From Candidatus Agathobaculum merdigallinarum (GTDB lineage Bacteria > Bacillota > Clostridia > Oscillospirales > Butyricicoccaceae), in the NCBI GenBank assembly GCA_019115425.1, contig DXDO01000129.1, positions 1 through 43,541 of the forward strand: a DNA stretch of 43,541 nt, written 5' to 3'. This document shows positions 17,981-43,541 of this stretch, piece by piece (the stretch's first letter is position 1; each line of letters starts with the position of its first letter). Made by a program: the position numbers and the translations under genes. The notes below the pieces were generated by a model, which did no database searches, was not told the DNA's origin, and saw only the letters and a program-made list of their open reading frames with translations.

Positions 17981-18174
17981 CGCGCCACCGGCGCGCATTT
18001 AATCGCAAAGCAAGATAATTTCTTGCTTTGCATAAAAACGCGCGACATGCGCGTGCGTTTTTATACCAGTGCAAAGCAAAGTGTGCCTGCCAGGCGCGCT
18101 TTGCGCAGCTGGGGGTGTATCCGCACTGTAAGTGCGGTACATCCCTCTCGATTGGAACTGTACGTTCCAATCGA
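17981..18174 (+). repeat. Multi-hairpin dispersed element, copy A
   Basis: Six consecutive hairpins including ATAAAAA-cgcgcg-ACATGCG-cgtgcg-TTTTTAT (18032-18064) and terminal TCGATTGGAAC-tgtac-GTTCCAATCGA (18148-18174); collinear with copies B-E. Confidence 0.85.
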
Positions 18175-18176
18175 AA

Positions 18177-20630
18177 TCACATGTCCGGGTTCTCATCCGC
18201 AAACACGGTCACGCCCCTGTTTTTGCTGTCCTGCATGAATTCGCGGATCACGCCCGCGATCAGCGAGCGCCAGCGCGCATTGCTGTCCGCCCGCATGGTC
18301 AGGTGGTAGCGGTAGCGCCCCATCACCTTGACCACCTGCGCCGCGGCCGGTCCCAGAACCGGCGCCTTGACATCCGCGTACTGCCCTTCCATCAGGCTTT
18401 GCAGACGGGCTTTAAGCGCGATGAGGCTTTTCAGCACCTGCTGCTCGACCTCGCCCACCGCGGTCAGCACGGTCAGGCCGCGCACCGGCGGACACTGAAG
18501 TGCCTGCCGCGTTTCCAGCTCGCGCTCGAAAAACGCTTCATAATCCTGCCGCGCTGCGGCGAGGATGACCGGATGCGCAGGGCTGTATGTCTGAATGACC
18601 GCTCTGCCCGTGTCAAATCGCCGTCCCGCGCGCCCCACCACCTGCGTAATCAGCGAAAAGGTGCGCTCACGCGCGCGATAGTCCTGCGCGTATAAGCTCT
18701 GGTCCGCGTCCAGCACGCCCGCCAGCGTGACGTTCTCGAAATCCAGCCCCTTGGTCACCATCTGGGTGCCGAGCAGGATATCCGCCCCGCCTTTGGCGAA
18801 CTGCGACAGCAGCTTTTCGTGCGCGCCCTTGGTGTTCATCGTGTCCGCATCCATGCGCAGCACGCGCGCGGACGGGAACTTTTCGTTCAGCTCCTGCTCG
18901 ACCTTCTGCGTGCCCGGTGTTTCGGTAAACAGATGCTCGCCGCCGCACACGGGGCATTTTCCGGTGATCCTGACCGATGCGCCGCAGTAATGGCACATCG
19001 CGCGGCCGGATACCGAGTGATAGGTCATGCTCGTCGAGCACGAGGGACATTCCGGTACCCAGCCGCAGAGCGCGCATCCGATCACGCGGCTGTTTCCGCG
19101 CCGGTTGAGAAACAGGATCGCCTGCTTTCCCTTTTCCAGCGTATCGATCAGCTCGCTTTCCAGCTGCGGGCCGATCACCCCTCCGCGCCCCTCGCGGGCA
19201 AGGCCGCGCATATCGGCGATCTGCACATCCGGCAGGCCGGCGCCAAGAAAGCGTTCGGTCAGCCGAAATACCGGATATTTACCCTGCTTTGCGCCATAAT
19301 ACGTCTCGACCGACGGAGTAGCCGACCCCAGAACGAGCAGAGCGTTCTGCTGGGCAACGCGGTATTTTGCCACGTCGCGCGCATGGTAGCGCGGCGACTG
19401 CTCGGAGCGGTACGCGCCGTCCTGCTCCTCGTCGATAATGAGTATCCCCAGGTTCTGCACCGGCGCGAACACCGCCGAGCGCGTGCCGATGACAACGCGC
19501 GCGCGGCCGGATTTGATCTTTTTGAAGCTGTCGTACCGCTCGCCGGCGGACAGCGCGGAGTGCAGCACCGCGACCTCGCCGCCAAACTGGGCGGCAAACT
19601 GCCGCAGCACCTGTGGGGTCAGCCCGATCTCGGGCACAAGCACGATCGCGCTTTTGCCCTGTTCCAGCGCCCTGGCAATCAGCTTTAAGTAGACCTGTGT
19701 CTTGCCGCTGCCGGTCACGCCGAACAGCAGCGCGGCGCGCGGCGCGTCCTCATCCATCAGCGCGGCAATGCCGTCATAAACCTCCTGCTGCGCCGCGCTC
19801 AGAATCGGCGGCGCGGCCTTTGGCACCTCGGAAAAATCGGGCGTACGCAGGCGCTCTTCGCGGTGCTCGCGCAGAAAGCCCTTTTTGACCATATCGCGCA
19901 GCGCCGCATCCGACACGCCGGTCATATATACAAGCTCCTTCTGGCTCATCCAGCCGCCGTCCGCCAGCAACGAGACCACGTCCATGCGGGCGGGGCTGCG
20001 GCGGCTGATGCGCGCCATTGCTTCGCCCGCCTCCATATCCAGAGAGAGCATCTTTTCGGTTTTATCGTTTGATTTCTGTATGGTATTGCTGTGATAGACG
20101 AGTATCCCCTCGCCCGCGAGCGCATCCAGCAGGCGTGTTACGCTTTTGCCGCCCAGCCGCTGCCGGATATCCGAGACTGCAAGCGTCTGTCCCGGGCGGT
20201 CGAACAAAGCCAGCACCGCGCCCGCCTCGTCCTCCCGCTTTTGCAGCGCGGCAAGGTCGGCATCCGGCGCAAGCGTATAAGTCTCGTTCCGTTTGAACCA
20301 CAGCCCTGCGGGCAGCATCACGCGCACGCAGTCAAAATAGGTGCAGTACAGGCGCTCGCGCATCCATGCGGCGAGTTTGAGCTGCTCGGCCGTTAAAACC
20401 GGCGCATCGTCCAGCACCTCGACGATGGGCTTGAGCTTGTATTCACCGGTATCTTGACGGAACGCCAGTACGACCGCTTCCGCCCGTTTATTGCCAAAGC
20501 CGAACGGCACAAGAACACGGGTGCCAATCTGCACCTGTTCCCGCAGCTCGTCCGGCACACGGTAGGAATATAGCTTGTCGATCGCATAGGTCGCCGCATC
20601 CACAGCGACCGCGCAGATTGGTTCGGTCAA
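18177..20630 (-). CDS. priA: Primosomal protein N' (replication restart helicase)
   Basis: GVTGSGKT, LVPEI, DEEQD, SATPS, four CxxC pairs and GTQMVTKGLDF; TTG start after AAAGGAG; 817 aa. Confidence 0.97.
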   Translation of the reverse strand: MTEPICAVAVDAATYAIDKLYSYRVPDELREQVQIGTRVLVPFGFGNKRAEAVVLAFRQDTGEYKLKPIVEVLDDAPVLTAEQLKLAAWMRERLYCTYFDCVRVMLPAGLWFKRNETYTLAPDADLAALQKREDEAGAVLALFDRPGQTLAVSDIRQRLGGKSVTRLLDALAGEGILVYHSNTIQKSNDKTEKMLSLDMEAGEAMARISRRSPARMDVVSLLADGGWMSQKELVYMTGVSDAALRDMVKKGFLREHREERLRTPDFSEVPKAAPPILSAAQQEVYDGIAALMDEDAPRAALLFGVTGSGKTQVYLKLIARALEQGKSAIVLVPEIGLTPQVLRQFAAQFGGEVAVLHSALSAGERYDSFKKIKSGRARVVIGTRSAVFAPVQNLGILIIDEEQDGAYRSEQSPRYHARDVAKYRVAQQNALLVLGSATPSVETYYGAKQGKYPVFRLTERFLGAGLPDVQIADMRGLAREGRGGVIGPQLESELIDTLEKGKQAILFLNRRGNSRVIGCALCGWVPECPSCSTSMTYHSVSGRAMCHYCGASVRITGKCPVCGGEHLFTETPGTQKVEQELNEKFPSARVLRMDADTMNTKGAHEKLLSQFAKGGADILLGTQMVTKGLDFENVTLAGVLDADQSLYAQDYRARERTFSLITQVVGRAGRRFDTGRAVIQTYSPAHPVILAAARQDYEAFFERELETRQALQCPPVRGLTVLTAVGEVEQQVLKSLIALKARLQSLMEGQYADVKAPVLGPAAAQVVKVMGRYRYHLTMRADSNARWRSLIAGVIREFMQDSKNRGVTVFADENPDM

Positions 20631-20678
20631 AAGCTATACTCCTTTCTCTGTTGATGAAAATTGCTATGCATATAACTC

Positions 20679-20837
20679 CGCGCCGCAGCGCGTATTTAAT
20701 AGAAAATTGCGGTGAACCGCAATTTTCATAAAAACCCGCGACATGTGCGTGGGTTTTTATACAAACCGATACCAAGTGTGCCCACTGGGCGCGCGCAGGT
20801 ATCGGAAATTTTCAATTGAAACTGTAGTTTCAATTGA
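20679..20837 (+). repeat. Multi-hairpin dispersed element, copy B
   Basis: GAAAATTGCGGT-ga-ACCGCAATTTTC, then ATAAAAA-cccgcg-ACATGTG-cgtggg-TTTTTAT, then CCGATACC...GGTATCGG, then TCAATTGAAACT-gt-AGTTTCAATTGA. Confidence 0.85.
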
Positions 20838-22038
20838 GTTGCTCCTGCTGCATCGCCAGCAGGCGGTCGAGAATGATGTCCGCAAGCTCCTCCTTGGGCA
20901 TGAGCGGCGGCGTTTCCCGCCGTCCGTCCGCAAACAGCAGGGTCGCGACATTGGTATCCGTGCCGAAGCCCGCGCCCTTGTCGCGCAGCGAGTTTGCCAC
21001 CAGCATATCGCAATTTTTGCGGCGCAGCTTATCCGCCGCGTTGTCCAGCAAATTCTGTGTTTCCATCGCAAAGCCGCACAGCAGCTGGCCGGGGTGCTTG
21101 CGCCGCCCCAGTTCGGCGAGGATATCCGGATTGCGCGCAAGGGCAACTGACATTTCGCCGTCGCCTTTTTTCATCTTTTCCGGAGCGACCTTTGCCGGAC
21201 GGTAGTCGCCCACCGCGGCCGCTTTAATCACCATGTCCTGCTGATCCGCGCGGGAGATCACCGTGTCGTACATATCGCGCGCGGATACAACATCCACCCG
21301 CTGCACGCCCTCGGGCGTAGCCAGCGCGGTCGGACCGGAGACCAGCGTCACCTCCGCGCCGCGCATCGCCGCGCGCGCCGCGACCGCATAGCCCATTTTC
21401 CCTGTCGAGTGATTGGATAGGAACCGCACCGGATCCATCGCCTCCTGCGTCGGCCCTGCGGTCACCAGCACACGGCGCCCGTGCAGATCCTGCGGGGTGA
21501 GCGCCCGCTCGATCCCCCAGAGCAGCACCGGCGTTTCCGGCAGCTTGCCGCGGCCGGTGTCGCCGCAGGCAAGCCGCCCCGCCGCAGGATCGATGATATG
21601 AAAGCCCCGCTCGCGCAGCGTCTGCAAATTCTGCTGGGTGACCGGATTGTCGTACATGCCGGTATTCATCGCCGGCGCGATCACGACCGGCGCGCGGGTC
21701 GCCAAAAGCGTGGTCGTCACCATATCGTCCGCAATGCCGTGGGCCGCCTTGGCGATGACATTCGCGGTTGCAGGGGCGATCACGAACACATCCGCCGCCT
21801 TGGCAATCGACACATGCTCAACCTCCCACGCGAAGTTGCGGTCGAAGGTATCCACCACCGTGCGATAGCCGGACAGGGTTTCAAACGTCATGGGTGAAAT
21901 AAACTGCGTGGCCGATTCAGTCATCAGCACACGCACCTGCGCGCCGGCATGACGCAGCTTGCTGGTCAGATCCGCAGCCTTATATGCCGCGATGCCGCCC
22001 GTAACGCACAAGACGACTGTTTTCCCCGCAAGACGCAT
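20830..22038 (-). CDS. coaBC: Bifunctional phosphopantothenoylcysteine decarboxylase / phosphopantothenate-cysteine ligase
   Basis: TGGIAAYK, APATAN, PAMN, LACGDTGRG, TAGPT.E..DPVRF.SN.STGKMG and GFAMET; 402 aa. Confidence 0.97.
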   Translation of the reverse strand: MRLAGKTVVLCVTGGIAAYKAADLTSKLRHAGAQVRVLMTESATQFISPMTFETLSGYRTVVDTFDRNFAWEVEHVSIAKAADVFVIAPATANVIAKAAHGIADDMVTTTLLATRAPVVIAPAMNTGMYDNPVTQQNLQTLRERGFHIIDPAAGRLACGDTGRGKLPETPVLLWGIERALTPQDLHGRRVLVTAGPTQEAMDPVRFLSNHSTGKMGYAVAARAAMRGAEVTLVSGPTALATPEGVQRVDVVSARDMYDTVISRADQQDMVIKAAAVGDYRPAKVAPEKMKKGDGEMSVALARNPDILAELGRRKHPGQLLCGFAMETQNLLDNAADKLRRKNCDMLVANSLRDKGAGFGTDTNVATLLFADGRRETPPLMPKEELADIILDRLLAMQQEQLN

Positions 22039-22041
22039 CGC

Positions 22042-22425
22042 TTACCGGTCCTCCTCCGGCACATCGCCGTCGTCCAGCTCGCTGTCTCCAAACTCGTCGA
22101 GGCGGAGATCCTCCTCCTCGGCTTCCGCTCCGTCCTCGGATGAAGTTTCCTCCTCATCCAGATCCAGCGCGTCATCCACATCCACCATCGCGGCAGCGAT
22201 CGGGTTGTTCTGCACGATCACCGGTTCGGTGCGCGGGCCGGGACGGTAAACGATCTCGCCGGCTGCGATCTCGTCGAGCGCCAGCTTGACCGCCTTATCC
22301 GGCAGCTGCTCGCCGGTTTCCTCCGCCTGGTCGGCAATGTCGCGGGCACGCTGCGCCGCCAGATTGACCAGCAGATAGCGATTGCCCACTCGCTTCATGA
22401 GTTCCTGCATGGAAGGTTTCAGCAT
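22042..22425 (-). CDS. rpoZ: RNA polymerase omega subunit with long acidic C-terminal tail
   Basis: MLKPSM..L...VGNRYLLVNLAAQRAR and KAVKLALDEI; lies between gmk and coaBC. Confidence 0.92.
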   Translation of the reverse strand: MLKPSMQELMKRVGNRYLLVNLAAQRARDIADQAEETGEQLPDKAVKLALDEIAAGEIVYRPGPRTEPVIVQNNPIAAAMVDVDDALDLDEEETSSEDGAEAEEEDLRLDEFGDSELDDGDVPEEDR

Positions 22426-22460
22426 TGTAATCAGTTCTCCTTATATTACCCTTAGTATTC

Positions 22461-22696
22461 TTCGATCGAAACTACAGTTTCGATCAAGATGAACGCACCG
22501 CACCAAAGGCGCGGATGCGTCCCAAGCTATGCAAAGTTCCGACACGCGAAACTTTGCGCCGCACTGGTATAAAAACCGTGATACACGGCCCAGGCCGCCT
22601 TCTCTTGGTCTACGACCAATTCACCTTGCGCTCCCGGTTTTTATAAAATTGCGGTATACCGCAATTTTTATTCTATTATACGCTTCGCGCGCAAAA
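22461..22696 (-). repeat. Multi-hairpin dispersed element, copy C (inverted, with nested insert)
   Basis: Reverse complement has the same hairpin order as A/B; shares AAAATTGCGGT..ACCGCAATTTT and GAAACTGTAGTTTC with B, and TTTTATACCAGTGC with A; central loop replaced by about 55 nt of extra structure. Confidence 0.8.
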
Positions 22697-23260
22697 TCAG
22701 TCCCCACGCCGCGCGGCAAAAATGCCCTGTATCTCGCGCACCGCGCGGTCGATCTCATCGTTTACCACGACATAATCGAACTTATCCTGGCTTTTCAGCT
22801 CTTCTTTTGCGGTCTCAAGGCGCTTGCGCACCTTTTCCTCGTCCTCGGTGCCGCGGCCGCGCAGGCGTGCGGCGAGCTCCTCAAAGGACGGCGGCGCGAT
22901 GAACACCATTACCGCGTCCGGACGCTTCTCATGTACCTGCATCGCACCCTGCACCTCGATCTCGAGGATCACGTCATAGCCCTCGGCAAGTTTTTCATTG
23001 ACCGGCGCTTCGAGCGTGCCGTAGTAGTTATCGACATAGCGGGCGTGCTCTAAAAACGCGTTCTGCGCGATTTTTTCCTCAAAATCCGCCTTGGTGAGGA
23101 AGTAATACTGTACGCCGTCAGTCTCGCCCGGGCGCGGCGCGCGCGTGGTCGCGGAGATCGAATAAAAAAGGCGGTTGTCCTGCTCGCGCAGAAGGGAAAG
23201 CAGCGTGCCCTTGCCCGCGCCCGACGGGCCGGTGAACACATACAGGGTTCCTTTAGGCAT
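22697..23260 (-). CDS. gmk: Guanylate kinase
   Basis: [24 protein letters not shown] and NYYGT; start 23260; 187 aa. Confidence 0.97.
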
Positions 23261-23516
23261 CCTCGGTCTCTCCTTCCTCTCCGTCGCCCGCAAAGCGCGC
23301 AGCGACCGTTTCCGGCTGCAAAGCGCTCAGCACCACATGGTCGCTGTCCATAATGAGTACCGCGCGGGTGCGGCGGCCGTAGGTGCCGTCCACCACCATG
23401 CCGCGGTCGCGCGCCTCCTGCACGGTGCGCTTGACCGGCGCGGATTCGGGGCTGACGATTGCGATCAGACGCGACGAGGCCACCATGTTGCCAAAGCCAA
23501 TATTGATGAGTTTCAC
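23253..23516 (-). CDS. remA: DUF370 family regulator RemA
   Basis: [12 protein letters not shown]...[15 protein letters not shown]...TYGRRTRAV...[15 protein letters not shown]; lies between yloC and gmk. Confidence 0.93.
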
Positions 23517-23536
23517 CCGTGCCGCCCCCTTACAGC

Positions 23537-24412
23537 TTATTCAATATTCTGAATCTGTTCGCGGATCTTTTCGATCTCGCTTTTGATATCCACCACGATG
23601 CGCGCCATATCCACGTCGTTCGCCTTGGAACCGATCGTGTTGGCCTCGCGGTTCATTTCCTGCACCAGAAAATCCAGCTTGCGGCCGACCGGCTGGGTCT
23701 CCTTCAGCATACCGTCCAGCTGGTGCAGATGGCTGCGCAGGCGGACAGTCTCCTCATCGACCGCAGTCTTGTCGGCATAGATCGCCGCCTCGGTCAGGAT
23801 ACGTGTTTCGTCGATGCTGGTATCCGCCAGCACCTCCTGCATACGCGCGCGCAGCTTTTCACGGTACTCCCTGACGCGCTCGGGCGAGCGTTTCTCCACC
23901 TCGCTCACCATGCGCTCGATCGCGGCGCAGCGGCCGCGCACATCCTCGGCAAGCTTTTCGCCCTCGCGCAGGCGCATCTGATCAAAGCCGTCGCAAGCCT
24001 TCCCGAACACATCGGTCACGTCGCGGATCAGCTCATCCGCGTCCTGCTCGATCCGCTCCGATCCCAAAACTTCCGGCATTTTGGCCAGCACGGCGACGGT
24101 CACGTCGTCCCGCAGGCCATAGGTCTCGCTCAGGTCGTGCAGCGCGTCCAGATAGCGCTTTGCCAGTGCGTGGTTGACCGTGACGGCGATATCCCCGCCC
24201 TCCTGCATCTCCACGCTGACGAAAATCTCCACTTTTCCGCGCGCGATACGGGCCGCGGCGGCTTTTTTGACCGCGTCATCCAGAAAACCGTACTGGCGCG
24301 GCGCCTTGACCGTGCAGTCCAGATAGCGATGGTTGACCGCGCGCAGTTCGACCGTGATCGTGCGGCCGTTCAGCTCCTCCCTGGCGCGGCCGTAGCCGGT
24401 CATACTCTTCAT
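23537..24412 (-). CDS. yloC: YicC/YloC family endoribonuclease
   Basis: [36 protein letters not shown] and [11 protein letters not shown]; 291 aa. Confidence 0.95.
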
Positions 24413-24429
24413 GTCATTTCTTCCCCTTT

Positions 24430-24936
24430 TCAATCGGGCGGCAGGCTTCTGCGCAGCAGCGCAATCAGCCGTGACAGCGCCACGTCATACATTAAAAATA
24501 TAACATTGGCCGCGGCCCACAGCGCCACGACCTTGCCCAAGCCGGTGACGGCGAGCTGCGGCATAAACACGAATACCGCCAGCGCGGCGGCGACCACCAG
24601 CACGACGTTGAAATACGCCAGCTTGATACCGGTCTGCATCTGCCGCGGCATACGGCTCTCGATCACAAACTTGACGATCGGGTACAGGCCGCAAAACAGC
24701 ACATAGGCCGCAGCCACACTCTTGCGCGGCGTGACCAGTATACCCAGCAGCGATGCCGCGGCATACAGCAGCACCGCGGTTTTCAGCTGCGCATGCCGCA
24801 AAAGCGGTACAGCCGAGGTGACGCCCGCTACGATACACGCCGCTGGGCCGATATAGGGCGCGGCGCCGCCTACATACAAAAGCGCCACGGCGGCAGCGGC
24901 CAGCAGCCCGCCGCGCGCAATCTCCCTTGCGTTCAT
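24430..24936 (-). CDS. Hypothetical integral membrane protein (about 5 TM)
   Basis: Highly hydrophobic 168 aa with GLYPIVK..IE; starts 1 nt after the J-domain gene stop. Confidence 0.75.
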   Translation of the reverse strand: MNAREIARGGLLAAAAVALLYVGGAAPYIGPAACIVAGVTSAVPLLRHAQLKTAVLLYAAASLLGILVTPRKSVAAAYVLFCGLYPIVKFVIESRMPRQMQTGIKLAYFNVVLVVAAALAVFVFMPQLAVTGLGKVVALWAAANVIFLMYDVALSRLIALLRRSLPPD

Positions 24937-24937
24937 A

Positions 24938-25555
24938 TCAGCAGCCCGCGTTGCAGCAGGAGTTCAGGCAGCAGTTGCAGATCGCCAGCTGCAGGCAGAA
25001 ATCGCACATATTCGTCTCCTGCATGGGACGGTAGCCGCCGTAGCCGCCCGACATGTTCAGATTGTTGAGTGCGGTGCGGTACTCCAGGTTGGACGGGTCC
25101 ATCTGGCACGCCTGCGTATAGGAACGCGCGGCCTCGTCATACCAGCCCTTGCGGTAATACACCGTGCCCATCAGGTAGAACCACTCGGCGTCCCTGCCGT
25201 TCGCGCGCTGCAAAAGCTGCTCGGCCATACCCAGATTTCCCTGATTGATCGCCTGGCGCACCTGACTGTACAATGACGCGTTCGGGCCGGAATAGGCGCG
25301 CTGCTGCGCGCCGCCGTACTGCTGGCCGCCGTATTGCTGCCCGCCCGAAGCGCCGCCTGCGGATTTGCCCGCGCGCTCGTTCATGATCATGTCGTAGGCC
25401 TCGTTGATCTCTTTCATACGGGCTTCCGCGAGATCCGCCAGCGGATTGTTGATATAGTTGTCTGGATGATATTTGCGCGCCAGCTCGCGGTAAGCGCGCT
25501 TGACGTCGTCGTCGCTTGTCTGTGGCGTGACGCCCAGCACCTTATAGGGATCCAT
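24938..25555 (-). CDS. J-domain (DnaJ-type) protein with TPR-like region and Cys-rich C-terminus
   Basis: DPYKVLGV...YRELARKYHPD J domain, G/Q-rich linker, AEWFYLMG...GWYDEA TPR-like helices and CDFC..AICNCCLNSCCNAGC tail. Confidence 0.88.
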   Translation of the reverse strand: MDPYKVLGVTPQTSDDDVKRAYRELARKYHPDNYINNPLADLAEARMKEINEAYDMIMNERAGKSAGGASGGQQYGGQQYGGAQQRAYSGPNASLYSQVRQAINQGNLGMAEQLLQRANGRDAEWFYLMGTVYYRKGWYDEAARSYTQACQMDPSNLEYRTALNNLNMSGGYGGYRPMQETNMCDFCLQLAICNCCLNSCCNAGC

Positions 25556-26426
25556 GTCTGCCCCATCCTCCGTTCGTTTGGTAAGTTCCGTCCAGCACCT
25601 GTCTCGTGACCAGCGGCATACCCAGAAAAATAATATTGCGGATCAGGTCCGCGTCCCGCTTCGCATCCAGCAGGTCGAACGCCATGCAGATGTCCGCGAG
25701 CGACCGCTCCAGCGTGCGCTCGAGCGGTTGTTTGATCTCTGTAATATCCGGTGTGTGCAGTTCATAGCGCAGCACCACCGGATTGTAATTATCCTGCTCC
25801 ATGTCCTCTTTGACGTCCTGCGCAGCATCCAGCAGGTAGACCCAGCGCCCGATGTGGTAAACCATCTGCCGCAGCACGCGCTCGCGCGCGTCCCCCGTTC
25901 TGGGAACGGCCGCCTCGGTCATGCGCGCCGAAGCGTCCGCTGCGCGGTCCATGGACGCACATTTCTCGCGCTCGAGCGTTTGCAGATCGGCAAGCGCCTG
26001 CATCATTTCTGTATCCGCATCCGGCAGACGCGCCCGCGCCTTCTCATAGCCGCGGCGGCCCAGCCGACACAGCACGGCGGCCAGCGCGCGCTTCGGGCCT
26101 TTTTCATCCGCAAGGCTATCGCGAAGTTTGTGATAGGTGAGCAGAACGCTCACATCGGCCGCCAGCTCCAGCGCAGCGTCTGTCTGCGCGCAGGGACGCT
26201 TTGTGACCGGATGCGCATCACACCGTTTTCTGCATGGCGGAGCAGTATCCGGCTCGCCGCAGCCCACAACGAGCGCGAAAAAGGTCATGTCGTAGCTAAG
26301 GAAAAAGGTATAGAACCGGCCGTACCGTGCGCGGATCGCGTGACACAGGCCGCAGTATACCTGTTGGAACCGGTCGGCCTCCTTCACCCGAAGCTCGGGC
26401 TTGACCGGACGGATAAAGCCAAACAT
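25542..26426 (-). CDS. DUF5685 family protein
   Basis: MFGFIRP.KPEL, YCGLC, LSYD.TF, KL.D...DE and GRWVYLLDA..D..ED; overlaps the J-domain gene start. Confidence 0.85.
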   Translation of the reverse strand: MFGFIRPVKPELRVKEADRFQQVYCGLCHAIRARYGRFYTFFLSYDMTFFALVVGCGEPDTAPPCRKRCDAHPVTKRPCAQTDAALELAADVSVLLTYHKLRDSLADEKGPKRALAAVLCRLGRRGYEKARARLPDADTEMMQALADLQTLEREKCASMDRAADASARMTEAAVPRTGDARERVLRQMVYHIGRWVYLLDAAQDVKEDMEQDNYNPVVLRYELHTPDITEIKQPLERTLERSLADICMAFDLLDAKRDADLIRNIIFLGMPLVTRQVLDGTYQTNGGWGRHGSL

Positions 26427-26477
26427 TACATAATCCTTTCACGCCGCACTCGGGACACGGCCTTGCGTATTCAACCT

Positions 26478-26506
26478 ATTTTACCGAACTTTTGCGGATA
26501 ACACAA
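26478..26506 (-). promoter_or_regulatory. Putative SigA promoter at the head of the DUF5685-to-thiN gene run
   Basis: Minus strand TTGTGT-17 nt-TAAAAT in an AT-rich gap. Confidence 0.45.
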
Positions 26507-26545
26507 GGGATAAACGGATAAAATCAGTAAAAATTTACAAAAAGT

Positions 26546-26959: not shown

Positions 26960-27009
26960 TGGTCTCGCTCCATTCTTTTTTCAGTATTTTTTGCGCCGCA
27001 GCGCACCTA

Positions 27010-33643: not shown

Positions 33644-33652
33644 CGCGGATAG

Positions 33653-33699: not shown

Positions 33700-33706
33700 G
33701 TAGTTC

Positions 33707-35203
<1,497 letters not shown>

Positions 35204-35235
35204 TGCAATGACCTCCCTATCGATTTTGTGCTTTC

Positions 35236-35289
35236 ATTCTACCGGTCCATTGTGGCAGTTTGTTGAAAACAATATGAATAATTTTTGAA
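35236..35289 (-). promoter_or_regulatory. htrA promoter with tandem OmpR-family regulator boxes
   Basis: Minus strand TTCAAAA, TTCATAT, TTCAACA, GCCACAA at exact 11-bp period, upstream of a TAGAAT -10 (35236-35241); no good -35. Confidence 0.55.
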
Positions 35290-35339
35290 CTTCAATTTTC
35301 CCCCAATATTCAACCGGACAAACCGCCGTCCGAAGGCGA

Positions 35340-35526
35340 CAGCCTCTCGATCGGAACCATGCTTCCGATCGAAATTTACGCAAAAAAAGGTTCCCCTATG
35401 CGAAACTTTTTTGCTCTCAAAGTATAAAAAGTCAGGCACATGTCCTGACTTTTTATGAATTTTGCGGCAAGCCGCAAAATTCTGTTTGATGCGCGCTGCG
35501 GCGCAAAAGACTTTTTCGACAGACTG
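35340..35526 (-). mobile_element. Multi-hairpin dispersed element, copy D, MITE-like with imperfect TIRs and target duplication
   Basis: Same hairpin array, inverted (ATAAAAAGTCAGG-CACATGT-CCTGACTTTTTAT at 35424-35456); ends CAGCCTCTCGA...TCGACAGACTG (9/11 inverted match); AAGGCG repeated at 35333-35338 and 35527-35532. Confidence 0.7.
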
Positions 35527-35557
35527 AAGGCGGCGGTCTTTGCGCATATGATTTCTG

Positions 35558-37012
35558 TTATTGCTGTTTCGCGCCCGGCAGCTGCGGCGGGGCGAGCGGC
35601 AGGGTAAATTCAAACTCGGTCTCGCCGCCGTCTGACCGGACAGAGATCTCCCCGCCGTGCAGATTGATAATATTCTTGACAATATATAATCCCAGACCCG
35701 CGCCGGTTTTATCCATGGAGCGCGAGCGATCGGCCTTATAGAAGCGGTCGAAAATATGCGGCAGGTCATCCGCCGAGATGCCCGCGCCCGTGTTGCTGAT
35801 CGAGAACGCGCAGAACGTGCCCTCCGGATGCGCGCGCAAGCACAGCCGGCCGCCCTCGTCAATAAACTTGACCGCGTTATCCACCAGATTATACACCGCG
35901 CGGTACAGATGATCTCTGTCACCCATGACGATCAGCCGATCCTCCAGTTCGCAGCATACCTCCAGTTTCTTATTTTCAATCTTCTGCTCAAAGGAGAGGA
36001 TGATCTGGCTGGTCATCTCGGAGAAATCAAGCGGCGCAGGGTTCAGGATCAGCTCGCCCGACTGGATCTTTGCCGCGTCCAGCATGCGATTGACCATGCG
36101 CGACAGGCGGCGGGTCTCCTCGGCAATGATGTGCAGATATTTATCCCGCTGGTCGGCGGGAATCGTGCCGTCAATCATGCCGTCCACAAAGCCGCCGATC
36201 GTAGTCATCGGGGTTTTGAACTCGTGGCTGACGTTGGAGATAAACCCGCGCGTCAACTCCTCCAGCTGATCGAGGTCGCGCGCCATGTTGTTGAAGGAGA
36301 CCGCCAGCTCGTCGATCTCATAACAACGGTTGTCCTCGGGGACGCGCACCTCAAAATTGCCGGCCGCAAACTCTTTCGCCGCCGCCGCAATCACTTTGAG
36401 CGGCCGCGTCATATGCTGGGACAGGATGAACGATATGATCAGCGCCACCACCAGCGTCACCAGCAGGATGAGCACCAGCGTCTGCGTGGAGTGCCGCACC
36501 ATCCCCGCCGCCGCGGCGTCCTGCGTGTAGATAAACACCATGGCGGAAAGCTCTCCGTTGTCGTCCGTCACGCCTGTGCCCACGGTATAGCTGGAGCGGT
36601 CCCCCAGCACGCCGAGCTGTCCCAGCTCGGCATAGCTGCCCGTGTTGCGTACCTGGCGAACCACAGCGGCCGGCATAATATATCCACTGACCGACGCTGT
36701 CGAACCGTCTGGGGCAGCGACCATTTCTATCACGCCGTTTGAATCGGTCACACAAACAGTAATCGCGTCCTCTTTGGCGACACGGCCGATGGACAGCATA
36801 TAAATATCCCTGATAATCTCCGAATCCGTTCCCTGCATCAGTTTGGTCTGCTCCGCAAGGCTCTGCACGGTCGTGCGCAGTTCCACCTGTTTGGATCTGA
36901 GCGCATAATTGCTCATCTGGTAATAAAACACGCTGCCCGCCACCGCGAACGCACATACGATCAGCACCAGATGCGTCACATAGTTTTTGAAGAAAAAACT
37001 GCGTCTGCCCAT
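35558..37012 (-). CDS. HAMP-domain sensor histidine kinase
   Basis: Two TM helices, HAMP, SHEFKTP H-box, NLVDNAVKF, FDRFYKAD and GAGLGL; 484 aa. Confidence 0.95.
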   Translation of the reverse strand: MGRRSFFFKNYVTHLVLIVCAFAVAGSVFYYQMSNYALRSKQVELRTTVQSLAEQTKLMQGTDSEIIRDIYMLSIGRVAKEDAITVCVTDSNGVIEMVAAPDGSTASVSGYIMPAAVVRQVRNTGSYAELGQLGVLGDRSSYTVGTGVTDDNGELSAMVFIYTQDAAAAGMVRHSTQTLVLILLVTLVVALIISFILSQHMTRPLKVIAAAAKEFAAGNFEVRVPEDNRCYEIDELAVSFNNMARDLDQLEELTRGFISNVSHEFKTPMTTIGGFVDGMIDGTIPADQRDKYLHIIAEETRRLSRMVNRMLDAAKIQSGELILNPAPLDFSEMTSQIILSFEQKIENKKLEVCCELEDRLIVMGDRDHLYRAVYNLVDNAVKFIDEGGRLCLRAHPEGTFCAFSISNTGAGISADDLPHIFDRFYKADRSRSMDKTGAGLGLYIVKNIINLHGGEISVRSDGGETEFEFTLPLAPPQLPGAKQQ

Positions 37013-37015
37013 GGT

Positions 37016-37696
37016 TTACTCCTTGGTTTCAAATTTATAGCCCACACCCCAGACGGTCTTTAACTCCCACTTATCCGAAGCGCCCTCGAGCTTTTCGCGC
37101 AGGCGCTTGACATGTACATCCACCGTGCGGGTATCGCCGAAATAGTCGAAGCCCCACACATCGTCCAGCAGCTGCGCGCGGGTGAACACCCGGTTCGGGC
37201 TGGATGCCAGATAGTACAGCAGCTCGATCTCCTTGGGCGGCGCGTCCACACGTTTTCCCCTGATAACCAGATCATATGCCTGCTTGTCGATCACGAGGTT
37301 GTCAAACGACAGCTTTTCAGGTGCGTCGTCCGGCGCCATGCGGCGGAACACCGCGCGCACGCGCGCAATCACCTCAGGCATCTCGAGCGGCTTGACGATA
37401 TAGTCGTCCGCGCCCATTTCGAGGCCGGAGACCCTGTCCGCCGTCTCGCCCTTGGCGGTCAGCATGATGATCGGCACGTCGCTTTCCGCGCGGATCTCCT
37501 TGCAGACCGCCCAGCCGTCCATCACCGGCATCATCACGTCGAGCAGCAGCATATCCGGCTTTTCCGACTTCCACAGCTTAATGCCTTCCACGCCGTTTTC
37601 CGCCTCCAGCACCGCATAGCCCTCACGCTCCAGATACAGGCGCAGCAGCTCGCGGATGTTGGCTTCGTCTTCCACAATCAATATTTTCTTGGGCAT
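37016..37696 (-). CDS. OmpR/PhoB family response regulator
   Basis: ILIVEDE, LLDVMMP, LTAK, GADDYIVKP and winged-helix RTVDVHVKRLREKL..TVWGVGYK; start 37696; 226 aa. Confidence 0.95.
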   Translation of the reverse strand: MPKKILIVEDEANIRELLRLYLEREGYAVLEAENGVEGIKLWKSEKPDMLLLDVMMPVMDGWAVCKEIRAESDVPIIMLTAKGETADRVSGLEMGADDYIVKPLEMPEVIARVRAVFRRMAPDDAPEKLSFDNLVIDKQAYDLVIRGKRVDAPPKEIELLYYLASSPNRVFTRAQLLDDVWGFDYFGDTRTVDVHVKRLREKLEGASDKWELKTVWGVGYKFETKE

Positions 37697-37785
37697 GATA
37701 TCCCCTGCTTTCCCATAGTATGCTTCCATTATACCGCTGTTTGCCTGAAAAAGCATTAACAATCTGTAAAAGCGCGTCCGGCCGA

Positions 37786-37814
37786 TTGTGCGTGCCGCGC
37801 GGGTGTGTTATAAT
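37786..37814 (+). promoter_or_regulatory. SigA-type promoter for tsaA
   Basis: TTGTGC-17 nt-TATAAT with TG extended -10. Confidence 0.6.
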
Positions 37815-37843
37815 CTTGACATCCTGTAGGAAGGGGGCCTTTC

Positions 37844-38536
37844 ATGTCCCACACCATTCCCATGCGCGTGATCGCACACATTCACAGCGATTTTCCAACC
37901 AAATTTGGTATCCCTCGTCAAAGCGGGCTGGCCGACGCGCCCGCACGCATTGTTTTCGAACCCGAATACCGCAATGCCGACGCATTGCGCGGCATCGAGG
38001 GATTTTCGCATCTCTGGCTGCTCTGGCATTTTTCCAAGGCCGAGCGCGAGGGCTGGTCTCCAACCGTGCGCCCGCCCAAGCTGGGCGGCAACAAGCGCGT
38101 AGGCGTGTTCGCCACACGCTCCCCCTTTCGGCCGAACGCCATCGGACTATCCTCCGTCCGGCTGGATCGGGTCGAACTGCAAACGCCCGACGGCCCAGTG
38201 CTGCATATCGCAGGCGCCGACCTGATGGACGGCACGCCGATTCTGGATATCAAGCCCTATCTGGCCTATACGGACGCGCATCCGGACGCCGTGGGCGGCT
38301 TCGCCGACCCTGTCTCACAGCGCGCATTGCCGGTGGACTGCCCTCTTGCTCTGCTCGAACCTCTGCCCGAAAACCGGCGGGAGGCGCTGCTCGCCGTGCT
38401 TGCGCAGGACCCGCGTCCGGGCTACCAACACGAGCCGGACAGAGTGTACGGTTTCCCGTTCGCGGGCTTCGAGGTGCGCTTTTCGGTCTCGGACGGCCGC
38501 CTGACGGTCGTTGATATCCAGCCCGCGGAGGGATAA
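37844..38536 (+). CDS. tsaA: tRNA (t6A37)-N6-methyltransferase TrmO
   Basis: KFGIPRQSG, FSHLWLLW.F, PTVRPP.LGGN..VGVFATRSPFRPN, DGTPILDIKPY and QDPRP. Confidence 0.95.
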   Translation: MSHTIPMRVIAHIHSDFPTKFGIPRQSGLADAPARIVFEPEYRNADALRGIEGFSHLWLLWHFSKAEREGWSPTVRPPKLGGNKRVGVFATRSPFRPNAIGLSSVRLDRVELQTPDGPVLHIAGADLMDGTPILDIKPYLAYTDAHPDAVGGFADPVSQRALPVDCPLALLEPLPENRREALLAVLAQDPRPGYQHEPDRVYGFPFAGFEVRFSVSDGRLTVVDIQPAEG

Positions 38537-38554
38537 ATTCCGCTTTGCAAACAC

Positions 38555-38587
38555 AAAACCGCCCCGGAACTTTCCGGGGCGGTTTTT
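38555..38587. terminator. Bidirectional intrinsic terminator between tsaA and the DUF4914 gene
   Basis: AAAACCGCCCCGGAA-ct-TTCCGGGGCGGTTTT between convergent stops. Confidence 0.85.
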
Positions 38588-38600
38588 ATATGCGTTTTTA

Positions 38601-40475
38601 TTACAGGTTGGTCGGGGTGATCGCCTCAAAGTCCTCGAGCTTGCCGCCGCGCATGAAGCATTCGATGATCTCCTTGCCGCGCGGGTCGAGTTCAGGCGTA
38701 TCGAACTTCGCCAGTTCCTTGCGGAAGAAGTTCTCCAGGATCTTCGCGCCCGCATCATAGCCTTCGGTGCCGACGCGGTCCTGCGTATCGACGCGCAGGT
38801 ACTTGGAGCGGATGCGCTGGCCGTCGATCGTCATATCCTTCATTGCGTAGCCGAGCAGCGGGCAGCGGGCCGGTTCCAGATGCTCGCGGCGGATGCGCGC
38901 GCCGCCGTGGCGGGCAAGATACTCGCGGGAGATCCACTCAGCCGCAAAGCCGACCTTATACACGCCGATGTGCTGGTTCGGGATGAGCACATAGCGGGTA
39001 TTCGGGCAGTTCATGATCTGCTCCAGCAGCAGGTTGGCCTGCTTGACGCGCTGGCCGGTCGCAAACGGCCAGTAGGAGCCGACGCCCTCGCTCTTGAGCT
39101 CGTTGCCGGTCACGATGGACGGGTTGTTGAAGCCGCGCGGCGCAACCAGACGCCACAGCCAGGCGAGTGCAGGCGGGATAATGTGCATCATGCCCATGAT
39201 GCCGTAGTTCGGATTCTCGCGCGTCGTGGGGGGCATGCGCACGCCGAACGAGCGCACGTCGACCTCCACAGGCTCCTTGACGATATGCGGCACATCCCAG
39301 CGCGGCACGATCGCGCGCGGGTTGGAGCAGGGCTTGCCGTTGGAATCGAGCGTATGCTCCCAAATCAGCAGAGTCGCGCCCGCATGGCCTTCCATATTGA
39401 AGAAGCAGAGCGGCTCCTTCGGCTCGGTGCAGATGCGCTCGTACACCGGATCGCAGCCGTAATGGGTCACGCCATCCATGCGCAGGAACCAGCCGTCCTC
39501 GCCGTCCACCAGCACAAGCTTGCCCGACCGGTTTTGAAGCTGCGGATAGCAGGTCGCCATATCGTCGCACACCGGCTCGATCGAGCAGGTCGCGCCCATG
39601 TTGATATAGGTCTCCTCACCGGTCACAGTGTTGGTAGAGAGCAGCACGCGGCCGTCCGGATCGCGGGCGATGTCCTGCAGCATCTCGCTCTTGCCGCCGC
39701 CGGAAGCGCCCTCGTGCATGATGACCATTTCGTTTTCATACGGGGTAACGAGACGGCCGCAGGAGGTGTGCGCGGTCACCCAGCCCTCCTGCTCGCCGAT
39801 GTCGAGCAGCACCGAGTATACGCCCTTCTTGGCGGACGGGCCGGGATACAGGTTGTAGGAAAATACCTCGTGGCAGTCGTCCAGGCGGTTGTGCACAACG
39901 ACCTGCTTGCCCTCGAAGTGGGTATGGCGGAACGGGGGCGCCACGTAAACGATCGCGCGCGGCTTGTAGCCGTCGCACTCCTCGGCGTTGACAAAGCCCT
40001 GCAGATGCGCCAGCGCGAACGCGAAAAACGCGCACTGCTTGGGGCACACGAGCATGGAGCCGTAGCCGTAGATATTGCCGCCCGAGTTAAAGGGCATCAG
40101 GATCAGCTCCTGCGTCTTGAACCAGTCCATGGTTTCCTTGCGCAGATCGCTGAAAGGATAGCCGTATACATCCGCAAAGCGCTTTTTGTCGGTCGGCTTG
40201 TCGTCCGCGATGCGCATGCAGTCCGGCTCACGGCGGCGCATATAGTCCTCCACGAAGTTGACCGAGGCGCCGTTCTTGCAGCGGGTCACGTCCGCTTCCT
40301 TGACCGGACCTTTGCCGGGCACGTCGAACACGACGTCGTAAACATCCGCATGCTCGGGCCCGAACACCATGTCGTACAGCTCCGCCTTGCTGGTCGGCAC
40401 TGATACGCCTTTGCAGTGTTCGATCACATCGGTCAGCTCATCTGTAAAAGTGAATTTGGTCAGCAGAGAGTTCAT
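38601..40475 (-). CDS. DUF4914 family protein, PEP carboxykinase-like fold
   Basis: YPGPSAKKG, AHTS, GASGGGKSE P-loop, CDD and NPRA in PEPCK motif order; AAGGAGG RBS; 624 aa. Confidence 0.82.
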   Translation of the reverse strand: MNSLLTKFTFTDELTDVIEHCKGVSVPTSKAELYDMVFGPEHADVYDVVFDVPGKGPVKEADVTRCKNGASVNFVEDYMRRREPDCMRIADDKPTDKKRFADVYGYPFSDLRKETMDWFKTQELILMPFNSGGNIYGYGSMLVCPKQCAFFAFALAHLQGFVNAEECDGYKPRAIVYVAPPFRHTHFEGKQVVVHNRLDDCHEVFSYNLYPGPSAKKGVYSVLLDIGEQEGWVTAHTSCGRLVTPYENEMVIMHEGASGGGKSEMLQDIARDPDGRVLLSTNTVTGEETYINMGATCSIEPVCDDMATCYPQLQNRSGKLVLVDGEDGWFLRMDGVTHYGCDPVYERICTEPKEPLCFFNMEGHAGATLLIWEHTLDSNGKPCSNPRAIVPRWDVPHIVKEPVEVDVRSFGVRMPPTTRENPNYGIMGMMHIIPPALAWLWRLVAPRGFNNPSIVTGNELKSEGVGSYWPFATGQRVKQANLLLEQIMNCPNTRYVLIPNQHIGVYKVGFAAEWISREYLARHGGARIRREHLEPARCPLLGYAMKDMTIDGQRIRSKYLRVDTQDRVGTEGYDAGAKILENFFRKELAKFDTPELDPRGKEIIECFMRGGKLEDFEAITPTNL

Positions 40476-40589
40476 CTATTTGTTTCCTCCTTTTCACACT
40501 GCCGCGTTCTTCCCAAAACGCCGTCCAGTGTGTCCACGGAACCTTGTTAAAAAAATGACGTTTAACAAGGCCTATTGTTCTTCATTTAT

Positions 40590-40619
40590 AGCATACCGCA
40601 AAACCGGCCCCTTCGTCAA
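40590..40619 (-). promoter_or_regulatory. SigA-type promoter for the DUF4914 gene
   Basis: Minus strand TTGACG-18 nt-TATGCT, about 115 nt upstream of the ATG. Confidence 0.55.
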
Positions 40620-40726
40620 CTCATTTTCACATTTTTGCAGGATTTTAGACAACTTCTTGCAATGTGTACAAAACCCAACAAATGTTTTCATCTGTTTTTC
40701 TCACATGGACAAGTGTTCTTCGCGCA

Positions 40727-41908
40727 TCAATCCGTGAAACGGACGGTAATGCGCACGATTTCGCTGCGGGTGCCCACGCGCATATCCGGCCCCCAGACAC
40801 CCAGCCCCGAGGTGACGACCGAGTACATCCCCCCTACCTGCAAACAGCCGCAGGGATTGTCCCAGAGAAGCGGCATGAGCAGGTTGCCCGGAAATACCTG
40901 CCCGTCATGTGTATGGCCGGACAGATCGAGGTCTGCGCCCGCCGCGGCCAGTTCGTTCAGTTCCTTCGGCTGATGGTCGATGACAAAAACAGGCTGCTCC
41001 GGATCGAGCGGCTCCAGCAGCTGCTCCGGCGCCAGCCGGGCGCTGTCCAGCTTGCGGCTGCGCGAGGGGTCCTTACGCCCGACCAGCTGCACGCCGTTTG
41101 CGAGCGTCACCGCCTCGTCCTCCAGCAGGGTGATACCCGCCTTTTCGAGGAAACCGGTCATGCGCGGATCATCCTTGTCCGCGTCGGCCGTATCCCAGGT
41201 AAATCCTGCGAGGATGGGTTCGGAAACGTCGTGGTTGCCCCAGCAGGCATAGGTGCCGTATGTACTCCGCATGGACGCCAGCGCCGCCGCGATCCGTTCC
41301 GGTTCGGGTACTGCCTCATATTCGTTGTCAAAAATATCGCCCGCGATCACAACAAGATCGGGCTGCATGGCGTTCACCACCTGCGCCGTCTGCTCGATGT
41401 AGGCTGGGTCGGTGTTATACCCCAGATGCAGGTCAGCCAGCAGGGCGACCGTCATGTCCTCCCCTTTGCCGTCCAGCGCGACCTCGTAATCCGTCACACG
41501 CAGCGTATCGGCATTCACCATGCCGTATATGCACACCGCGCACACCAGCGCAAGCGCAATGCCGCCCTGCACCTGCCGCACGCGCTGCATCTGTATAAAA
41601 TCTTTTTTTCGCACTCTGCGCACGGCAAACAGCATGATTTCCACCAACAGGATCGCCAGCCCCAGATACAGCATGCAGCCGAACCAGTAGTTGCCGATCT
41701 GCCGAAGAAGGTGCCGCAGCGCGGGCGGCGACTGCACCAGGAATCCGGTCAGCGGCGTGACCGACACAAAGGCATACAGAATGATAAAGATAATCCGGAA
41801 TGCCCTCGTGCCGAACAGCCGGTGACAGCAGCCTGTCCAGCGCAGCACCCAATGCGCCAAATACAGGTTCACCAATATATAAAACGGCGCGAAAACCAAA
41901 GCAAGCAT
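40727..41908 (-). CDS. Membrane-anchored calcineurin-like metallophosphoesterase (YkuE/YaeI-like)
   Basis: N-terminal TM helices; DLH, GDIFD, GNHD, DHQP and SGHTHDGQ. Confidence 0.9.
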   Translation of the reverse strand: MLALVFAPFYILVNLYLAHWVLRWTGCCHRLFGTRAFRIIFIILYAFVSVTPLTGFLVQSPPALRHLLRQIGNYWFGCMLYLGLAILLVEIMLFAVRRVRKKDFIQMQRVRQVQGGIALALVCAVCIYGMVNADTLRVTDYEVALDGKGEDMTVALLADLHLGYNTDPAYIEQTAQVVNAMQPDLVVIAGDIFDNEYEAVPEPERIAAALASMRSTYGTYACWGNHDVSEPILAGFTWDTADADKDDPRMTGFLEKAGITLLEDEAVTLANGVQLVGRKDPSRSRKLDSARLAPEQLLEPLDPEQPVFVIDHQPKELNELAAAGADLDLSGHTHDGQVFPGNLLMPLLWDNPCGCLQVGGMYSVVTSGLGVWGPDMRVGTRSEIVRITVRFTD

Positions 41909-41978
41909 CGTCAGTCCCCCAGGAAAACCGCCAAATCGTCAAAAGAAAACAGCGCGGGCGCCAAAGCGCCCGCCTCGC

Positions 41979-42761
41979 TCACCTCTTCCAACGCTCCCAT
42001 ACACGGGTGACGGACGAACATCTGCCGTCCCGCCCGATTTCAAAGACCGCGCCCGAAAGCGCACAGTCGCCCGGGGCGGTTTTGAAATACTCGGTCAGGT
42101 CGCCGCGGAACATGGCGACCGACTGCTCGACGCACACGCCCAGCACGGACACGATCGGCCCTGTCATGCCGATATCCGTGATATAGCCCGATCCCTTGGG
42201 ATTTACGCGGTTGTCCGCGGTCTGCACATGGGTGTGCGTGCCCCAGATGGCGGACGCGCGGCCGTCCAGATAATAGCCCATGGCGAGTTTTTCGCTCGTG
42301 GCGTTCGCATGGATCTCTGCAAGGGCGATGTCGTATTTGCCCGCCGCCTCGCCGAGGATCTTATCCGCGCGCAGGAACGGGTTATCCGGCCCGTAGTGCA
42401 TGTCGCACCGGCCGATCAGGTTCATCACCAGCAGGCGCAGGCCCTGCGGCCCGTCGTAGATGCCCCAGCCCTGCCCTGGGCTTTGCGGGGCAAGGTTGGC
42501 AGGGCGCAGTACGTTCGAATGCTCGTCCAAATAGGGCGCGATCTGCTGCTTGGAAAACGCGTGGTTTCCCAGCGTGATCACATCCGCGCCCGCGGCAAAG
42601 ATATCGTCCGCCTGCTTCGGGGTAACGCCCCGCCCTGCGGCGTTCTCGCCGTTGACGATCACGAAATCCGCGCCGTGCTCGCGTTTGACACGGCGAAGCA
42701 GGCCGTGCAGGGTGTCGATCCCCGCTTCGCCGACCACGTCGCCGATGGTTAAAACTTTCAT
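41979..42761 (-). CDS. ymdB: TIGR00282 family metallophosphoesterase YmdB
   Basis: GDVVG, NGENAA, TLGNH, RPAN, HA.ATSEK, GTHTHVQTAD and TDIGMTG. Confidence 0.93.
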   Translation of the reverse strand: MKVLTIGDVVGEAGIDTLHGLLRRVKREHGADFVIVNGENAAGRGVTPKQADDIFAAGADVITLGNHAFSKQQIAPYLDEHSNVLRPANLAPQSPGQGWGIYDGPQGLRLLVMNLIGRCDMHYGPDNPFLRADKILGEAAGKYDIALAEIHANATSEKLAMGYYLDGRASAIWGTHTHVQTADNRVNPKGSGYITDIGMTGPIVSVLGVCVEQSVAMFRGDLTEYFKTAPGDCALSGAVFEIGRDGRCSSVTRVWERWKR

Positions 42762-42785
42762 CGTGTACCTTTCCTTCTCTTGATT

Positions 42786-43307
42786 TCACAGTCTTACCGG
42801 CTCGTAAACCAGTTCTGCCATGCCGCCCGACTGCCGCACGGACACCAGCCGCTGTATTTCGCCCTCTGGGAACAGCCGGATGCCGCCGCTGAGCAGCACG
42901 GGAAGCACGGTCAGGTGCCAGCGGTCAATCTCGCCCGCGGCGGCTGCCGCCGCGAGCAGCTCCGCGCCGCCGCACAGCCAGATGTCCTTGCCGTGCTTAC
43001 GCTTTTGCGCGCGCAGCCACTCGGCAAAGTCCCCCTCGATGCACTGCGCATGGGGCAGCGGCCCGCTGTCATGCGTCCAAACCCAACAGTCCAGCCCCGC
43101 ATGCGGCCATACATCCGGCGAAAGCGTTTCTGTGACCTGCCGATAGGTTCGGCCGCCCATAACGACCGTATCCACGCCCTGCACGAAGGCTTCGTAGCCG
43201 CCGTCCTCCTGCGCGTCCGCGAAATCATCCAGCCAGTCCACGCCGCCATCCCTATCCGCGATAAAGCCGTCCAAGCTGACCGCCAGATATGCCACTGCCT
43301 TGCGCAT
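42786..43307 (-). CDS. Dihydrofolate reductase / RibD C-terminal domain family protein
   Basis: SLDGFIA..DGGVDWL, MGGRTY, IWLCGG and PVLLSGGIRLF; ATG at 43307 after AAGGAAGG; 173 aa. Confidence 0.88.
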   Translation of the reverse strand: MRKAVAYLAVSLDGFIADRDGGVDWLDDFADAQEDGGYEAFVQGVDTVVMGGRTYRQVTETLSPDVWPHAGLDCWVWTHDSGPLPHAQCIEGDFAEWLRAQKRKHGKDIWLCGGAELLAAAAAAGEIDRWHLTVLPVLLSGGIRLFPEGEIQRLVSVRQSGGMAELVYEPVRL

Positions 43308-43322
43308 ATGCCCTTCCTTTCC

Positions 43323-43357
43323 AAAAAGGGAGGCGGACAGCCCTCTGTCCGCCTCCC
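43323..43357 (-). terminator. Intrinsic terminator immediately upstream of the DHFR-family RBS
   Basis: 13-bp stem GGGAGGCGGACAG-aggg-CTGTCCGCCTCCC followed by TTTTT on the minus strand. Confidence 0.65.
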
Positions 43358-43372
43358 CCGTTCTCATTTCAA

Positions 43373-43541
43373 GCCGCGCCCCGCGGCAATTTAACAGAAA
43401 ATCGCCCCGCGATTTTCATAAAAAGTCAGGACATGCGCCTGACTTTTTATACAAAGGCCAAAAGGCGGAAAAATCAAAATTTTTCTGTCTTTTGGGCGCA
43501 ATAGCTGTTTCAGGCGCAGCCTGACAACAGCGTCCCTCGAT
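43373..43541 (+). repeat. Multi-hairpin dispersed element, copy E (truncated by the window end)
   Basis: GCCGCG-ccc-CGCGGC, GAAAATCGC-ccc-GCGATTTTC, ATAAAAAGTCAGG-ACATGCG-CCTGACTTTTTAT and two further hairpins; ends TCGAT at the start of the terminal palindrome. Confidence 0.85.

Follow-up and report, generated by a model that had tools for sequence, protein, structure and literature searches.

A modular non-coding repeat family of Agathobaculum with IS1182-type ends and a probable one-strand fold

The window analysed here, the whole 43,541-nt stretch of contig DXDO01000129.1 (Candidatus Agathobaculum merdigallinarum, assembly GCA_019115425.1), carries five copies, A to E, of an intergenic repeat built as a string of hairpins, H0 to H5. 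The contig is C60 of the source genome, G000 (2.0 Mb, 92% complete); genomes of the genus are labelled G0xx throughout. [quoted passage not shown]

Five copies in the window and the family around them

Gene neighbours were assigned with a simple gene caller and NCBIfam profiles. The genes flanking the five copies all lie on the minus strand (for copy E the gene is prs, beyond the window end), so that copies A, B and E, which read on the plus strand, are antisense to their neighbours while C and D are sense, as the initial annotation of this DNA had stated. Copies A, B, C and E are of a form without recognizable terminal sequences, here called end-less. Copy A (17980-18174, plus strand) runs from H0 to H5 between priA (stop codon at 18177-18179) and a GNAT gene, with H1 at about 18005-18031, H2 at 18032-18064, H3 at 18066-18110, H4 at 18111-18144 and H5 at 18148-18174. 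An antisense element of differing subtype is found at this site in 11 of 30 genus genomes, and the 5' arm of H0 is already present in empty alleles. The GNAT gene (17361-17969) resembles ArsN1b arsinothricin acetyltransferases, under the cut-off (182.6 vs 210 bits), and sits between priA and def in only some genus genomes.

Copy B (20677-20837, plus strand) lies between coaBC and priA. Its H5 (20812-20837) takes in the coaBC stop codon (20830-20832) within its 3' arm, and the final coaBC codons are rewritten. Among 29 genus loci read, the copy is carried by G000, G043 and G012, and empty alleles hold 21 different letters in place of 20648-20844, with no duplication. Just to its left (20640-20676), about 30 additional bases resemble one half of an older, oppositely oriented H1. 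GTAG-type REP-like (repetitive extragenic palindromic) repeats occur in other genus genomes (L191, L193, L134), in the coaBC-priA gap and also inside a Y1 gene. Copy C (22462-22690, minus strand), between gmk and rpoZ, is carried by G000 and G020 among 30 genus loci and has replaced about 27 nt of ancestral spacer; a mini-module, M1, is inserted in the loop of its H2 (22586-22627, minus strand).

The one end-bearing copy, D (35335-35526, minus strand), lies between a sensor kinase gene and htrA. Its right end is truncated, while its left terminal sequence (35509-35526, minus strand) is of the IS1182 type and starts as do the IS1182 elements of the genus. Read directly from the sequence, a remnant of the target terminator hairpin lies to its right (35320-35341, minus strand) with a partial copy at 35527-35541, which suggests a partial duplication of the target. 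Copy E (43374-43541, plus strand) continues past the window end into contig C168 of G000, where the 3' arm of its H5 is the native end and stop codon of prs; the prs C-terminus VSTLFD is present in all 30 genomes, and the matches at this site (seven, among 30 loci) are all antisense.

An iterated hidden Markov model (HMM) of H0-H2 gave 103 matches in G000 at E<0.01 and none in the reversed genome; the analyses below use the 100 copies at E<0.001. These copies, about 100 in number, are solitary, intergenic and polymorphic in presence and absence, and their orientation can be read unambiguously from the sequence. Inside, five to seven hairpins follow one another, and their stems covary: across 24 copies 96.5% of cells pair, against 35-48% in slid controls, and double changes are seen in 18 of 24 pairs. 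By BLAST the element occurs in 23 of 24 genus genomes and in none of 16 genomes of other families. A covariance model matches 23 of 91 genomes of the family, in 9 of 27 genera, and among 121 order-wide genomes it matches G000 and G015 plus one weak outside case; G015 (99% complete) has a single match. No Rfam family reached its gathering score (the best, istR, gave 28.5 bits against a cut-off of 45), a search of phages with one exact pattern found no copies, and literature searches, in a collection with few subscription papers, gave no paper on this element or on its antisense, stop-anchored form.

The family is modular. H2 variants, tails, M1 and a second mini-module, M2, are reshuffled at one orthologous site, and such a site can hold differing content, with varying H2 and tail types and nested starts. 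New copies insert at the hairpins of older ones, as where a left end has entered at the foot of an older H1 in G003, or as an inverted copy in G050. Hairpin loops are where M1 (about 45 bp) is found, with no obvious duplication, forward in H2 and reversed in H3 (G000 C143, C157, C163, C170 and C53; G019 L050, L052, L064 and L071, the reversed cases coming from G019 copies), and in one case it lies within a GTAG-type repeat that is unrelated. The insertion points of M2 (about 55 bp) are in H0, H2 or H3, with both orientations seen (in G000 forward at C10, C18, C95, C155 and C180; reverse at C34, C83, C110, C145, C153, C157, C180, C181 and C192), and once beside a terminator (C150). A separate MITE of ~165 bp, with near-perfect 16-bp terminal repeats and >10 copies, is sometimes found in or beside the hairpin element (G000 C23:7636-7786, C71, C93, C105, C107, C130, C150, C178, C33 and several contig ends). 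H3 and H5 may bear a likeness to group II intron ends. On the best reading, the family is a modular MITE derived from IS1182, in which a one-strand fold is inherited and which also has an end-less form, antisense and anchored at stop codons.

Wobble pairs and the strand that folds

The initial annotation had proposed that imperfect pairs in these stems read as G-U or G-T on the strand running from H0 to H5 (here the element strand) and as A-C on its complement. The stem arms it quoted are real, every arm searched for being where expected: A H3 at 18081/18091, A H4 at 18112/18138, B H3 at 20776/20786, E H3 at 43462/43484 and, on the reverse complement, C at 22547/22536 and 22508/22498 and D at 35402/35390, with the H2 arms of copies A and B also visible. 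It had omitted some mismatches of other kinds, namely a G-A in H2 of copy C and family-level A-C pairs in one H2 variant.

With a strand-symmetric stem finder run over the 100 copies (4182 Watson-Crick pairs), G-T outnumbered A-C on the element strand by 94 to 33, the ratio being 63:75 when sequences were shuffled, 72:70 for coding DNA and, for hairpins of the 3' untranslated region (UTR) read on the mRNA strand, 166:97; the 49 copies of G019 gave 47:14. By context the ratios were 51:21 in antisense, 9:6 in sense and 14:5 in convergent copies, and 48:25 over distinct contexts. The sense copies alone are not significant, yet 12 of 16 fold better on the element strand. When both strands of all copies were folded, a check that the initial annotation had suggested, the element strand was the better folder in 75 (RNA) and 78 (DNA) of the 100, and in all five window copies, copy D marginally so (RNA -75.5 vs -75.1).

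The excess is narrowly placed. Column 11 of H2 gave 21 G-T to 1 A-C; the remaining H2 columns gave 11:15 (68 parsed stems) and H1 8:7 (67 parsed stems), hence 19:22 for all H1 and H2 columns but that one, with 32-33 of the 100 copies not parsing. When mismatches private to a site were separated from those of the family, with 102 orthologous copies added, family-level events stood at 131:39 and family-level contexts at 20:6, and site-private events at 53:36. The one-strand wobble bias is thus real, but it is carried by a few inherited, family-wide columns, so that the five window copies are not independent tests of it; since the excess is inherited, one-strand folding is a property of the propagating family. 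After insertion the copies keep their stems paired but gain mismatches without a clear strand bias. A hint in H1 and H2 that antisense copies drift towards G-U on the mRNA strand (7:18) was lost in the larger set, in which site-private events of antisense copies favoured the element strand (37:26, p=0.21).

The triloops favour the element strand too. GNA triloops number 43 on the element strand against 13 of the complementary TNC (21:21 in 3' UTRs), GNRA tetraloops are rare (4 vs 31 in 3' UTRs) and UUCG loops are lacking altogether. GNA triloops are stable in DNA, and hence we lean, by little, towards single-stranded DNA (ssDNA) or a cruciform rather than RNA as the folded form. Taken with the double changes in the stems and the want of drift towards the mRNA strand, these counts bear out the proposal that the fold is the element's own and not that of host mRNA. 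Its further claim, that the direction of the host mRNA plays no part, is true of the wobble strand, though only trivially since that strand is inherited, and is not true of the orientation of the element, as described below.

IS1182-type ends and antisense copies behind stop codons

The left end of the element starts like those of IS1182 elements in G047, G048, G044 and G046, and its right end is similar. The IS1182 transposase P0001 exceeds the cut-off of the IS1182 profile NF033551 (386 vs 270 bits), a profile above cut-off in 4 of 36 genus genomes. The IS1182 elements of the genus adjoin terminators, and both they and the element land at hairpin feet, with duplications of 25-43 bp. The whole terminator hairpin is duplicated at 31 of 37 end-bearing copies in G019 (25-43 bp) and at 14 of 23 in G000, some misses there being due to anchoring. 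It is also duplicated in 18 of 42 related IS for which both flanks are available; most of the others have a different hairpin on each side, which collapsed assemblies or recombination would be expected to produce.

The left-end hairpin of IS1182 carries a T-run and shows 41 G-T to 1 A-C on its top strand (48 distinct ends), the same strand as the wobbles of the element. The subterminal hairpins of these IS (L225-L303) favour opposite strands, at each end the one that enters from there. The terminal hairpins of G042 and G118 form a graded series between the IS right end and H5, with core and loop in common, a series that would link the end-less form to the MITE; left ends in G042 are degenerate. 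When internal hairpins were compared with IS end hairpins, the best score on the left was 22 (16 reversed and 25 reverse-complemented), and that on the right was no better than its control. At G000 C180:1290-1720 the loop of a duplicated terminator is reverse-complemented on one side, as expected from a cruciform intermediate or a template switch. Stand-alone 35-bp hairpins made of two IS1182-like ends lie beside terminators at G000 C151:5826, C151:23549 and C32:9423 and are possible minimal MITEs. The IS5-like DUF772 transposase gene of G000 was rejected as a partner, its ends being unrelated; this gene, L001 (G000:C8:1-1443), runs off its contig and follows a truncated membrane-protein gene.

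One or both terminal sequences are present in 40 of the 100 G000 copies. Within co-directional gene pairs the end-less copies are antisense in 41 cases and sense in 8 (p=2e-6), and the end-bearing copies 7 and 8 respectively. The H5 end lies <=9 nt from the facing stop codon in 22 of 31 end-less copies in which it was mapped, and the stop falls within H5 in four. Sites of this kind, all antisense, include priA, rpmJ, pheS, argS, rplI, relA and prs. At priA, rpmJ, relA, argS, pheS and rplI together the HMM matched 104 of 178 orthologous loci, in 102 of these antisense, and all but three of the matches end <=18 nt from the stop, counts that come from kindred and not independent genomes; most of the genomes sampled retain copies at rpmJ, pheS, rplI and argS. 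Because the end-less copies are mostly antisense right behind stop codons, the direction of the element is not independent of the host genes.

The lagging-strand bias that the initial annotation had suggested looking for is not there: in G019, whose single contig has the origin near 3.918 Mb and the terminus near 1.95 Mb, 54 model matches split 26 leading to 28 lagging. In G000, with replichores inferred from skew by a method that was right on 18 of 20 G019 tiles, the antisense excess of end-less copies is 21:5 for genes of the leading strand and 12:2 for those of the lagging strand; because it holds on both, their orientation follows transcription and not the fork. The end-bearing copies of G000 lean 22:10 towards leading sequence, which tracks their sense orientation to upstream genes (25:10). 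A purge of sense copies through better termination on the wobble strand found no support, the element strand scoring lower in 69 of 100; the terminator score used, a heuristic only, whose coefficients are reportedly those of de Hoon et al., is weak on both strands (medians of about 0 vs 3.7 for real terminators).

Origin and mobilization of the element

The account that we favour as probable is that of a modular, non-coding family of MITEs in Agathobaculum and its relatives. Its end-bearing copies have IS1182-type termini and duplicate whole terminator hairpins, an IS1182 DDE transposase acting in trans is their likely mover, and the few inherited G-T columns and GNA loops of the family likely reflect the folding of one fixed strand, the transposase-sense one, in propagating master copies. 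IS1272 and TnSha1 target stem-loops and delete them (PMC4923244), and duplication or replacement has been modelled by which foot of a cruciform is attacked (PMC5678879). By analogy, strand transfer at the 5' feet of a cruciform would duplicate the hairpin and transfer at the 3' feet would replace it. H5 may be an older, diverged right-end hairpin, in which case the end-less copies, A, B, C and E among them, would share their descent with the end-bearing ones, having arisen by insertion of the replacement type or by losing their ends. With the IS1182 family (NF033551, which includes IS1272 and TnSha1) and its MITEs the element shares the left end and the duplicated or replaced hairpin and terminator targets (PMC4923244, PMC5678879). 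It differs in lacking an ORF, in its interior string of hairpins with one-strand wobbles and nested modules, in that most G000 copies are end-less and antisense behind stops, and in that no helper gene was found in G000 or G019.

Several points weigh against this account. At its right end the element agrees with the IS less closely than at its left; the IS1182 right-end hairpin shows 6:16 on top, that is 16:6 for the bottom strand, a preference equally compatible with RNA terminators that face inward. Neither G000 (92% complete) nor single-contig G019, which holds a young burst of copies, yielded a matching IS1182 transposase, so that the helper must be lost or transient, and none of 30 + 80 IS loci held an autonomous IS carrying H0-H5. 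Sixty of the 100 G000 copies have no recognizable end, copies B and C replaced 21-27 nt without duplication, and the antisense, stop-codon pattern is left unexplained by an IS1182 model. DDE transposition as usually described needs no folded strand. The GNA counts are not independent of each other, and the literature searched holds no paper supporting the stability of GNA triloops in DNA.

In a rival account two elements are superimposed, the H0-H5 core moving as folded ssDNA by its own non-DDE, transcription-coupled route, with end hairpins pairing with target DNA and homing antisense behind stops, and an IS1182 MITE having merely captured and amplified one core. The H0 arm in empty priA alleles, the native prs end in H5 of copy E, the absence of duplications at A, B and C, the tight spacing of H5 ends to stop codons, the antisense excess on genes of both replichore strands and the GNA loops all fit; but G000 has no Y1 transposase or reverse transcriptase (RT), H5 passes by degrees into the right-end hairpin of the IS, the short spacers of operons tolerate insertion just in the few post-stop bases, and the 'empty' alleles may be deletion scars, so we hold this to be unlikely. 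RT is likewise lacking in G012 and present in G019, G020 and G008. A related and similarly doubtful proposal keeps the IS1182 origin and adds a second, transcription-coupled route, in which a folded single strand would pair its terminal hairpin arms with the target, home antisense to the template strand exactly behind housekeeping stop codons and swap cassettes there genus-wide; the IS1182 ends would then fold on the strands that are not transferred, and a DDE family would include a single-strand step.

Less likely again is a fold that belongs to RNA, whether an antisense RNA or a terminator that faces inward and comes from the left end of IS1182, with stop-proximal antisense copies domesticated as antisense regulators of housekeeping operons. 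The G-U type of the wobbles, the skewed left-end hairpin with its T-run, terminator-like sequences reported within IS ends (10.1101/2025.07.22.666184) and the persistence of copies at rpmJ, pheS, rplI and argS speak for it; terminator scores that are weak on both strands and mostly lower on the element strand, the scarcity of GNRA and lack of UUCG loops, the turnover of site content between subtypes with close relatives empty, and the lone match in G015 speak against it. Least probable of all, and already disfavoured, is a REP/REPIN or IS200/IS605-type element served by an HUH (Y1) transposase on the lagging-strand template, the mobilization that the initial annotation had in mind. Wobbles on one strand, GNA loops, stems with bulges and the absence of duplications where A, B and C inserted would suit it, but Y1_Tnp is absent from G000, G008, G012 and G002, no copy lies beside the Y1 genes checked in G019 and G003, fork orientation is balanced in G019, and the IS1182 ends and hairpin duplications would go unexplained. 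As to integron attC sites, which the initial annotation had also named and which come with R and L boxes, cassette arrays and an integrase, the copies here are solitary and intergenic.

Staphylococcal STAR repeats are reportedly modular intergenic repeats of a similar kind. Like the element, the pneumococcal BOX, RUP and SPRITE repeats are modular and nested, with about 100 intergenic copies often near gene 3' ends, but they follow the bias of coding towards the leading strand (61-63%), with a preference for convergent gaps (PMC3049150), unlike the end-less form, which favours co-directional gaps and is antisense, a comparison of habits. REP/REPIN and IS200/IS605 stem-loops, such as the IS605 loops of Borrelia at lipoprotein gene 3' ends, are likewise strand-asymmetric wobble hairpins at gene 3' ends (PMC2775950), and the element shares with them an imperfect hairpin on one strand; it is unlike them in having no linked Y1 transposase or fork bias, and in its IS1182-type ends and long hairpin duplications.

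The anchoring behind stop codons matters according to its cause: if it reflects targeting and not survival, transposition would be tied in a new way to the place where translation ends, and if only survival, the element would be an ordinary MITE. Hairpin targeting by IS1182 elements is poorly worked out, and this family supplies hundreds of natural junctions; the genus has a transposase that matches, and the wobbles at the two IS ends are each specific to one strand, so that it is directly testable whether a DDE transposase reads folded single strands.

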